Part shown: one piece after another, positions 18,520 to 19,750 of the stretch
Layout of the letters: each line of letters starts with the position of its first letter
Numbering within the stretch: position 1 is the first letter of the stretch
IMG/VR virus record: IMGVR_UViG_3300045988_123958
Direction: 5' to 3' (one strand)
DNA from: a virus
DNA length: 64,000 nt
Translations under genes and position numbers: made by a program
The notes under the pieces: generated by a model
What the model was told of the DNA's origin: nothing
The model's database searches: none
What the model saw: only the letters and a program-made list of their open reading frames with translations

Positions 18520-19750
18520 CAAATTATTTTATAATTTTGACTATCTTTTACTGTTAAAATTTTAACAGGAAACCATTTCGGCATTTAAAGGACTTCATCT
18601 CTTAAAATCCTACTACGTATCAATAGTAGCCCTACTCCCCTGTCCAGAAGACCGAGGGGATAGTCGATACAGGTTCTTTGATTAACGTGCTGGATAATCA
18701 TAATTTTTTATAAGATATGACTCTCCTTTATTAATTTTACTAACTGTATCACGATGTATATTATATTTAATACCAATATCAGACATTGATTTAGAACTAT
18801 TTCTTAAATCTGATAAAATATTTTTTACTTCTTCAATAGTAAAATTCTGATTATTCCTAACATTTTTATTTCTAATAGGATAAATATAATTACCATTTTC
18901 TTTAAATAAAGTTCCTTGATTAATTGCTCTAATTACCTTTAAAGGGACTTTATACTTTTGAACTAAATCTGTTTCAATCTATAAATCCCAACGATACAAT
19001 AAATCTTCCTTTAAATTTAATAATTCCTATTCATTAAGAAAATAATCTAAAATATTATCTTTTTTCGCAAAATCATGATTATTTTGTCTTAATGGATATG
19101 AAAGATTTGGATTAAAATATGTATTTCCTTGAGATATATTCAAAATAGTATTTTGACTAACTTGATATAAATTAGCAATATCTTTATAAGATAATTTAGT
19201 ATTATTTATTAACAAATTTATAATTTCATTTAGTTGCTATTCATTGAATTTAGAATTACAATTTTCTATTCCTCGTTTGCCAGAAACATTTCCATTTTTT
19301 AATATATTATATCCTATTGTTTTATCTGTAGCATTATAAAAATTAATCCATTTATCTTCTATCTCATCAAGCTATAAAATATCAGAGACCTATTCTAATA
19401 TTTCAATTGTAGCTTGGTGTTTTTTTAAAGCCTAATCACAAATTTGAATATTTTTATGATTATGTTCATTGGCTCTAGACTAAATATTTAAAGCCTAACC
19501 AATATAAATTTTACCATTATCATAATTAATTTTATAAATACCACAAATTTTTAAATTGTCATTAATGTTAGTAATCATTGTTGCTTCCACCGTCCTTCTA
19601 TATATTTTTAATTTTTATGGAGGATGGATTAATCAAAGTTTCCCACGGGATTGATTAAAGTTAATTTTCCCCGTTAGCCGGCCATTTCCAAATTTTGGTA
19701 ATTGACAGACCCCACTGATTAGTGGAAAAGTTTTTCACCGGCCAGTATTG
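18520..19750 (-). mobile_element. group I intron (IA2) in the T5orf172/GIY-YIG nuclease gene, with its own GIY-YIG endonuclease
   Basis: Exon 1 ends ...GCG GT (U at 19751); intron ends ...AATAATTTG (G at 18520); splicing gives YVGQAVNIADRWKQH with I-TevI-like spacing; same td-like 5' and 3' core elements as the other introns; P7' AAGATAGTC. Confidence 0.7.
18682..19578 (-). CDS. GIY-YIG homing endonuclease (intron-encoded) with NUMOD/HTH C-terminus, multiple TAG
   Basis: GIYKINYDNGKIYIG[TAG]ALNI[TAG]SRANEHNHKN...; LSYKDIANLYQVSQNTI HTH. Confidence 0.65.

Follow-up and report, generated by a model that had tools for sequence, protein, structure and literature searches.

A probable mobile IA-type group I intron in the gene for a predicted membrane-anchored GIY-YIG nuclease of a recoded gut-type phage

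The td intron of phage T4 is proven to be self-splicing and belongs to subgroup IA2 of the group I introns. It carries the open reading frame (ORF) of a GIY-YIG homing endonuclease, I-TevI, within the loop of helix P6. Gut phages which are both rich in introns and recoded have already been described. The crAss-like, Jug, Lak and recoded 'gemstone' clades contain many group I introns and homing endonucleases in essential genes, and splicing in the intron-rich gut phages has been validated at the RNA level (PMC12880540). In recoded phages, intron endonuclease ORFs contain recoded stops, and recoding has been proposed to delay the production of the endonuclease until late infection (10.1101/2021.08.26.457843). 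A GIY-YIG domain is also found in SNIPE, or PD-lambda-1, a bacterial membrane-bound nuclease which cuts injected phage DNA, and for which homologues with FtsB-like N-termini have been reported (10.1101/2025.11.03.685801). The locus described here is contained in a stretch of 64,000 nucleotides (nt) from the viral record IMGVR_UViG_3300045988_123958, referred to below as the window, and lies on its minus strand. The phage is of the gut type and reads TAG as glutamine. With high confidence, the locus can be interpreted as a mobile phage group I intron of IA type, featuring P7.1 and P7.2, located in codon 267 of a conserved gene for a membrane-anchored GIY-YIG nuclease.

Uninterrupted alleles of the gene define the insertion. 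A search with the spliced protein returned thousands of relatives, the best of which are uninterrupted, 322-337 amino acids (aa) long, 57-95% identical and encoded on contigs of about 100-200 kb. Ten uninterrupted homologues (59-95% identity) align without gaps across the junction, and the flanking CYVGQA and RWKQH are invariant. One of the homologues, P0001, is encoded on a contig (here L001) which has the gene order of the window and shares 97-98% identity with it along some 13 kb; L001 and a further contig, L002 (96-98% identical to the window), lack exactly window positions 19749..18507. Since the alignment of L001 to the window stops at 19750 and restarts at 18506, the insertion is a clean one. 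The intronless allele of L001, at 6001-6801, shares 97% identity with exon 1, and its sequence around the insertion site reads ...GGTCAAGCAGTCGATCTTTCC... The insert is, far beyond chance, a clean presence/absence difference with respect to L001.

Exon 1 (19751..20550) comprises codons 1-266 and two nt of codon 267 and ends with ...GGU CAA GCG GU, its last base being U 19751. The part of the protein encoded by it has a transmembrane (TM) helix at the N-terminus and a long helix, followed by a conserved linker and by GIY...YVGQA, with which the first half of the GIY-YIG domain is completed. The intron (18520..19750, 1231 nt) starts with CAAUACUGGCCGG and ends with ...AAUAAUUUG, the terminal G corresponding to 18520. 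Exon 2 (18306..18519), starting with C AAU AUU GCU GAC CGU UGG, supplies the rest of codon 267, codons 268-337 and the stop, a UAA at 18306 which closes the frame; the sequence NIADRWKQH...E320, encoded by it, is the second half of the domain. The intron is thus placed between the second and the third base of codon 267. Reading through from exon 1 without splicing, four codons are followed by a UGA (19737..19735). When 19751 is joined to 18519, the frame is kept, 337 codons result and the protein reads ...CYVGQAV|NIADRWKQH; given a 5' exon which ends in U, G 18520 is the sole choice of a terminal G that keeps the frame. The spliced RNA is accordingly predicted to join ...CAAGCGGU with CAAUAUUGCUGAC (GCGGU|CAAUAUU). 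A first-pass annotation of this DNA had already placed the splice sites, and its coordinates, including a G as last intron base, prove correct to the base on the minus strand. The I-TevI-like spacing which it had noted between the YIG and R-x3-H motifs is also found, host residues 248-278 being aligned without gaps, over the junction, to I-TevI residues 3-33.

Helices of the intron RNA were assigned by reading the sequence, by mutual information over 79 distinct family members and by a formal count on 23 members, from which the ORF was removed where present; in the count, pairing was compared with 500 shuffles and with partners slid by 1-3 columns. Standard pairs were found in 87.4% of 1403 cells, versus 69.0% in shuffles, none of which reached as high a value, and pairing falls to 34-44% when partners are slid. 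Changes on both sides are seen in 46 of the 69 pairs, and the analysis of 79 members agrees. Paired cells amount to 98% in P3, 100% in P4, 92% in P6, 100% in P7 and 72% in P8. Some 335 non-coding nt flanking the ORF make up this covarying core, the two halves of which pair across the ORF through P3, P6 and P7. A group I core spanning P3 to P8, with the P3/P7 pseudoknot and the P4-P6 domain, is therefore present in the intron.

At the 5' splice site, P1 (19739..19754) is formed by exon CGGU (19754-19751) and intron CA (19750-19749), which pair with UGGCCG (19744-19739). The helix is made up of 6 bp with an AUAC tetraloop, and U 19751, opposite G 19742, provides the U.G pair at the splice site; the CGGU:GCCG pairing proposed in the first-pass annotation is contained within it. 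In one diverged homologue, L109, exon GCGU is matched by an internal guide GCGC, in place of CGGU and GCCG in the window; as exon and guide are both altered, P1 is kept by compensatory changes. The exon-2 sequence AAUAUU (18513..18518) can pair with intron AAUACU (19749-19744) in five of six positions, which would constitute a putative P10.

The 5' strand of P3, AAACU (19729..19733), pairs with GGUUU (18570-18574); these pairs have the highest mutual information in the 79 members, and four of the five are changed on both sides. Two hairpins, detected by mutual information and covariation, follow at 19676..19727, and between the second of them and UAACGGGG only GC remains. The first hairpin, here named P2, is UUCCACU/AGUGGGG; its loop sequence AUC pairs with GAU of the P7.2 loop, and the two loops covary in the 79 members. 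The second, here named P2.1, is GGUCUGUCAAUU/AAAUGGCCGGCU. Two other placements of P3 were tried and found no support: a 5' strand directly upstream of UAACGGGG, as in td, and a pairing of GGGG with UUCC, in place of which GAAUCC/GGAUUC is seen in L026 and GAGUCC/GGACUC in L035, both of them members without an ORF.

P4 (ACGGGG/UCCCGU, 19645..19674) encloses P5 and exhibits an exchange between GC and AU at one pair. The 5' strand of P6, CUUUGAUUA (19630..19638), finds its partner UAAUCAAAG (18676-18684) about 950 nt downstream, after the ORF, and each of the nine pairs shows changes on both sides across the family. A local helix of 8 bp, UUAAUCAA/UUGAUUAA (19629-19662, minus strand), competes with P5 and P6, and could form before the 3' strand of P6 is transcribed. 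P7 is composed of GACUA (18661..18665) and UAGUC (18539-18543), is invariant in the 79 members and has the same sequence as P7 of T4 td, which is the guanosine site of that intron. Its 3' strand, together with J8/7, is contained in GUAAAAGAUAGUC, within 18521..18568. The region 18590..18659 is occupied by P7.1 (18637-18659), P7.2 (18612-18630) and an optional extra hairpin (18590-18610), with 99%, 99% and 93% of cells paired, respectively, and with covariation. P8 (18551-18568) covaries as well. P9, AAAUUAU/AUAAUUU (18521-18537), starts with an A:U pair in the window, which is G.U in L003 and G:C in L017, two contigs bearing the same intron.

These data bear on the possibility that no splicing takes place at all, and that the gene has been broken into a pseudogene, or into two fragments translated separately, by the insertion of a free-standing endonuclease cassette. 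Such cassettes do occur in the same phage (for instance at 11595..10829), a start codon at 18584 opens a 92-aa ORF leading into exon 2, and Rfam gives no group I match in the window. A cassette of this kind would, however, leave unexplained a covarying group I core with halves pairing across the ORF, boundaries which comply with the requirement for a U.G pair and for a terminal G and bring the two exons exactly into frame, and exons free of frameshifts and of TAA or TGA stops; moreover, the 92-aa ORF has its start codon within P3'/P8, and nothing corresponding to it is present in alleles lacking the intron. The explanation is thus considered extremely improbable. The 92-aa ORF itself (MPKWFPVKILTV..., 18306-18584, minus strand), which starts inside the intron and continues into exon 2, is an intron artefact and no gene. 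Two other types of insert, an intein and a group II intron, were discarded: no frame runs continuously through the insert, neither an intein nor a reverse-transcriptase domain is found, and the core is that of a group I intron. The earlier core proposal, an endonuclease-bearing group I intron within a GIY-YIG catalytic domain, is borne out by three independent lines, namely the intronless alleles, the covariation and the motifs shared with td.

The interrupted gene is predicted to code for a nuclease anchored to the membrane at its N-terminus, with a long helix and a C-terminal GIY-YIG domain. The Pfam GIY-YIG family (PF01541) matches residues 249-329 (E=1.6e-9, 38.4 bits versus a cut-off of 22.6), across the splice junction. 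A profile of the host family matches the I-TevI catalytic domain (1MK0, residues 2-91) over the whole domain length with E=1.3e-6, and the catalytic positions Y251, Y262, R272, H276 and E320 are in place. Residues 2-22 are hydrophobic, with a weak match of DivIC/FtsB type. In the AlphaFold model of the homologue P0001, a helix extends over residues 2-189 with a predicted local distance difference test (pLDDT) score of about 80, and the C-terminal third scores below 50. A strongly conserved linker, residues 190-247, precedes the nuclease domain.

The family labels given in the first-pass annotation were only in part retained. Its T5orf172/GIY-YIG assignment stands for the GIY-YIG half, which is I-TevI-like; T5orf172 (PF10544) and DUF4041 (PF13250) are not listed by Pfam for the host protein even at E<=10, and the label 'DUF4041-like' was consequently dropped. 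Likewise, a TM helix followed by about 250 aa of coiled coil had been described: the TM helix and a long helix are found, with a helical region of about 165-190 residues according to AlphaFold. PADLOC v2 contains a model for PD-lambda-1, and the 13 PADLOC matches of the host protein at E<=1 are to HEase, UzuA and coiled-coil models only, none of them being named PD-lambda-1; the coiled-coil matches are noise, and HEase and UzuA match the nuclease domain. The gene is located in a neighbourhood of replication genes, downstream of the DNA ligase gene and upstream of the YorF, AAA_24 and DnaB genes, and is conserved down to 41-57% identity. Because of this fixed position and conservation, it is regarded as a resident phage gene, and not as a mobile endonuclease in its own right.

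The ORF of the intron (18682..19578) is 298 codons long, followed by a UAA stop, and includes 8 in-frame TAG codons. It sits in the P6 loop, as its UAA lies within the 3' strand of P6. An N-terminal GIY-YIG domain is recognized by Pfam at residues 12-83 (E=3.8e-8), with 32% identity to the I-TevI catalytic domain. The homing endonuclease family phrog_7168 matches residues 13-289 (E=2.5e-18), and weak helix-turn-helix matches at residues 112-148 mark a putative DNA-binding region. The product would thus be a homing endonuclease of the I-TevI type. Just 5' of the start of the ORF, the hairpin CCAUCCUCC/GGACGGUGG (19587..19627) covers a run resembling a ribosome-binding site, GGUGGA; a U-to-C change in L003 turns one of its U.G pairs into C:G, and the hairpin may have a regulatory role.

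Four homologues of the host gene, L003, L017, L091 and L109, which have diverged strongly from that of the window, carry this intron at the same codon and in the same phase (QAV|NI or QSV|NI). Its distribution is sporadic: 47 of 48 homologous loci in viral contigs are uninterrupted, the exception being on the L017 contig. When the window is compared with L003, identity is 90.8% in the 5' core of the intron, 92.8% in the endonuclease ORF and 94.4% in the 3' core, versus 69.2% in the last 300 nt of exon 1, 53.8% in the preceding 500 nt and 73.8% in exon 2. An intron which is 91-94% identical between exons sharing 54-74%, together with the sporadic distribution, indicates that the element is mobile, or has been so recently.

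It could alternatively be supposed that the intron splices but is an immobile relic, carrying an endonuclease which is inactive or blind to the site, and inherited only vertically. The endonuclease is in fact devoid of close characterised relatives and, by sequence, of matches to solved structures, its putative DNA-binding region corresponds to weak helix-turn-helix matches, and the 8 in-frame TAG codons restrict its expression. The relic is nevertheless judged improbable: the ORF is intact both in the window and in L003 (92.8% nt and 89% protein identity over all 298 residues), the intron has remained much more similar than the exons of its hosts, and it is missing in sister genomes 96-98% identical, a pattern which points to recent horizontal movement.

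Sequences next to the junction provide further information on the movement of the intron. The exons differ from L001 at 48 positions, seven of which are grouped in the 16 nt surrounding the junction. One of the seven restores a G:C pair of P1, and through the other six the start of exon 2 encodes N-I-A-D; these six are contained in the first 14 nt of exon 2, in comparison with intronless alleles which are otherwise 97% identical. The dipeptide N-I is shared by all five alleles with the intron; those without it read DL, NL or SL at this place, and never N-I. The differences fit co-conversion of the flanks during homing, and fit equally well the pairing of exon 2 in P10. Co-conversion, as well as ORFs placed in peripheral loops, is standard for introns of this kind (PMC3984707).

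In the mechanism favoured here, the transcript would fold into a P1-P10 core, and a free guanosine bound in P7 would attack after U 19751, at the U.G pair of P1. The terminal G 18520 would then enter the site, and ligation of the exons would yield ...YVGQAV-NIADRWKQH..., restoring the catalytic domain. In mixed infections, the endonuclease encoded in the P6 loop would cut intronless alleles of the host gene near the insertion site, and repair from the intron-bearing copy would move the intron along with a few flanking exon bases. As TAG codons are found in frame in the host gene as well as in the endonuclease ORF, both would be translated only once decoding of TAG as glutamine by the phage is active.

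A number of observations weigh against the interpretation of the locus as a mobile, splicing intron. The evidence at this locus comes from DNA sequence. P1 is short, with only 6 bp. At the family level, the P9 of the window is shorter and out of alignment register. The order of the helices departs from that of td, the 5' strand of P3 being upstream of the two hairpins across the 79 members. The intron ORF has no significant match, by sequence, among solved structures. Finally, no group I intron was detected by Rfam, neither in the whole window at gathering scores nor in 18300..19950 at E<=10, and an ORF-less relative of 209 nt, L107, matches RF00028 from end to end with 35.9 bits (E=1.4e-5), below the gathering score of 50. 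A positive control, the T4-like td intron with I-TevI contained in L124, equally gave no Rfam group I match at E<=10, which makes the null result on the window uninformative.

The intron belongs to a family which is abundant in phage metagenomes. The 17-mer GAACCUGUAUCGACUAU, a P7 element just downstream of the ORF, is found in at least 120 DNA stretches of viral contigs, and is followed by the same series of elements in nearly all stretches listed. Comparison of 17000..22500 with known phages by megablast revealed nothing; a distant search detected only short intron stretches in Enterococcus and Lak phages, and a few other weak matches. The 3' core of the intron (window about 18575-18680) matches Enterococcus phages EF1/EF5 and Lak megaphage records along 70-105 nt, with an identity of 82-89%; the matches to Lak phages cover about 70 nt. 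The EF1/EF5 sequences are annotated as hypothetical protein and the Lak records bear no annotation; these matches are probably unannotated introns of the same family. When 13 loci with short family members were scanned with Rfam at gathering scores, the only match was to an unrelated second intron in L045. This is a different, canonical group I intron (528-826, minus strand, 98 bits), about 0.8 kb away from the family member on the same contig. In another member, L077, an insert of more than 150 nt within P8 contains tRNA-like GGTTCGAA motifs; ARAGORN found no tRNA in it.

In-frame TAG codons are found four times in the host gene, all in exon 1, and eight times in the intron ORF (e.g. 20392-20394 and 19486-19488, respectively), and the host gene of L001 has its TAGs at the same positions as the window. 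In L017, TAG replaces CAA at two glutamines otherwise invariant in the family, Q265 and Q275, and in the intron ORF a TAG occupies the Q of the YIGQ motif; on these grounds, TAG is concluded to be read as glutamine. Many genes of the window use TAG as sense, and others contain none, such as the DNA ligase gene (21223-22434). None of the six tRNAs of the window (57.7-63.2 kb) is a suppressor.

The window contains at least three introns of the one family, each with its own GIY-YIG ORF. The second interrupts a DnaB-like helicase gene (12082-13116, minus strand), has in-frame TAGs in its ORF and is missing in the 98% identical L001, which fixes the junction as ...AUAUAUU|C CAU GAC; a junction FDP|CHD proved wrong in the light of this intronless allele. 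The third is located in a gyrB-like/topoisomerase II gene (25843-26885, minus strand), which it splits at KG|LGEM, with a P1 formed by AGGGU and GCCCU; a portion of it which includes the ORF lies where the window and L001 can be aligned. An insertion of 767 nt with respect to L001 (10829-11595, minus strand) is found shortly downstream of the helicase gene and carries a free-standing ORF. CxxC pairs are repeated in its product, the C-terminal half of which resembles an endonuclease; the ORF contains in-frame TAGs and probably codes for a free-standing homing endonuclease.

Some consequences concern annotation. Gene callers fragment the nuclease gene, the 337-aa product of which is obtained only when the intron is removed and TAG is read as Gln, and they also report the spurious 92-aa ORF (18306..18584). 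As Rfam misses ORF-bearing introns of this type, even td, intron counts in phage metagenomes based on it are underestimates. Furthermore, since a GIY-YIG ORF sits here in the conserved YxGQ-R motif of a GIY-YIG gene, the target of the endonuclease would be homologous to a part of its own coding sequence.

Compared with the systems described in literature, the window shares with the intron-rich gut phages its metagenomic gut origin, group I introns and recoded stops in the endonuclease ORF. The late timing of endonuclease production proposed for recoded phages would, by analogy, apply to this phage too. In the corresponding reports (PMC12880540; 10.1101/2021.08.26.457843), no GIY-YIG nuclease is mentioned as host gene, and the present intron family and its helix order were not found described.

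The host protein is organised like SNIPE, with a single TM helix at the N-terminus, a long stretch of helix after it and the GIY-YIG nuclease at the C-terminus. It differs in being phage-encoded, in its replication neighbourhood, in having no DUF4041 match and in a nuclease domain closest to the I-TevI type. The likeness is one of architecture only, and the protein is not assigned to the SNIPE family. It may nevertheless be the phage's own counterpart of SNIPE, used at the inner membrane, for instance, to destroy the DNA of superinfecting phages. If so, the intron would parasitise a gene for phage defence or exclusion; and if the protein were a membrane-sited nuclease acting on incoming DNA, it would represent, speculatively, a phage analogue of a newly described bacterial defence.

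Among known systems, td is one of the closest to this intron. Both introns house a GIY-YIG endonuclease ORF in the P6 loop and have P7.1 and P7.2, with the same P7.1 flanks; P4 (ACGGGG/UCCCGU) and P7 (GACUA/UAGUC) are identical. The motifs AACGGGGAA, AAUCCCGUG, CGACUAUCCC..GGGGAGUAGGG and AGAUAGUC are shared, and the order CGACUAUCCC..GGGGAGUAGGG..CGAAA..P3'..P8..AGAU(AU)AGUC is the same. In td, however, P1 is separated from P3 by a P2 hairpin, and UCUAUC, the 5' strand of P3, is immediately followed by UAAACGGGG, whereas in the window the P3 5' strand AAACU comes directly after P1 and two hairpins precede UAACGGGG; the covarying loop-loop contact between the first hairpin and P7.2 is a further difference. 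Among the features of the td-like subgroup IA2, P7.1 and P7.2 are thus found, and a P2 between P1 and P3 or a P3 beside J3/4 are not. The host genes also differ, a nuclease here and thymidylate synthase for td, and the two endonucleases, related in the catalytic domain, have unrelated C-terminal regions. The family may represent an undescribed structural variant of group I introns, in which the P3 5' strand precedes two hairpins and a hairpin loop contacts that of P7.2; none of its ORF-less members that were scanned attained the gathering score of the Rfam group I model. This reading of the family, like that of the host gene as a phage-borne SNIPE counterpart, is doubtful and put forward tentatively. 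In its general features the intron conforms to the mobile group I introns typical of phages and is an ordinary representative of a very large phage intron family; it is the host gene that is unusual.

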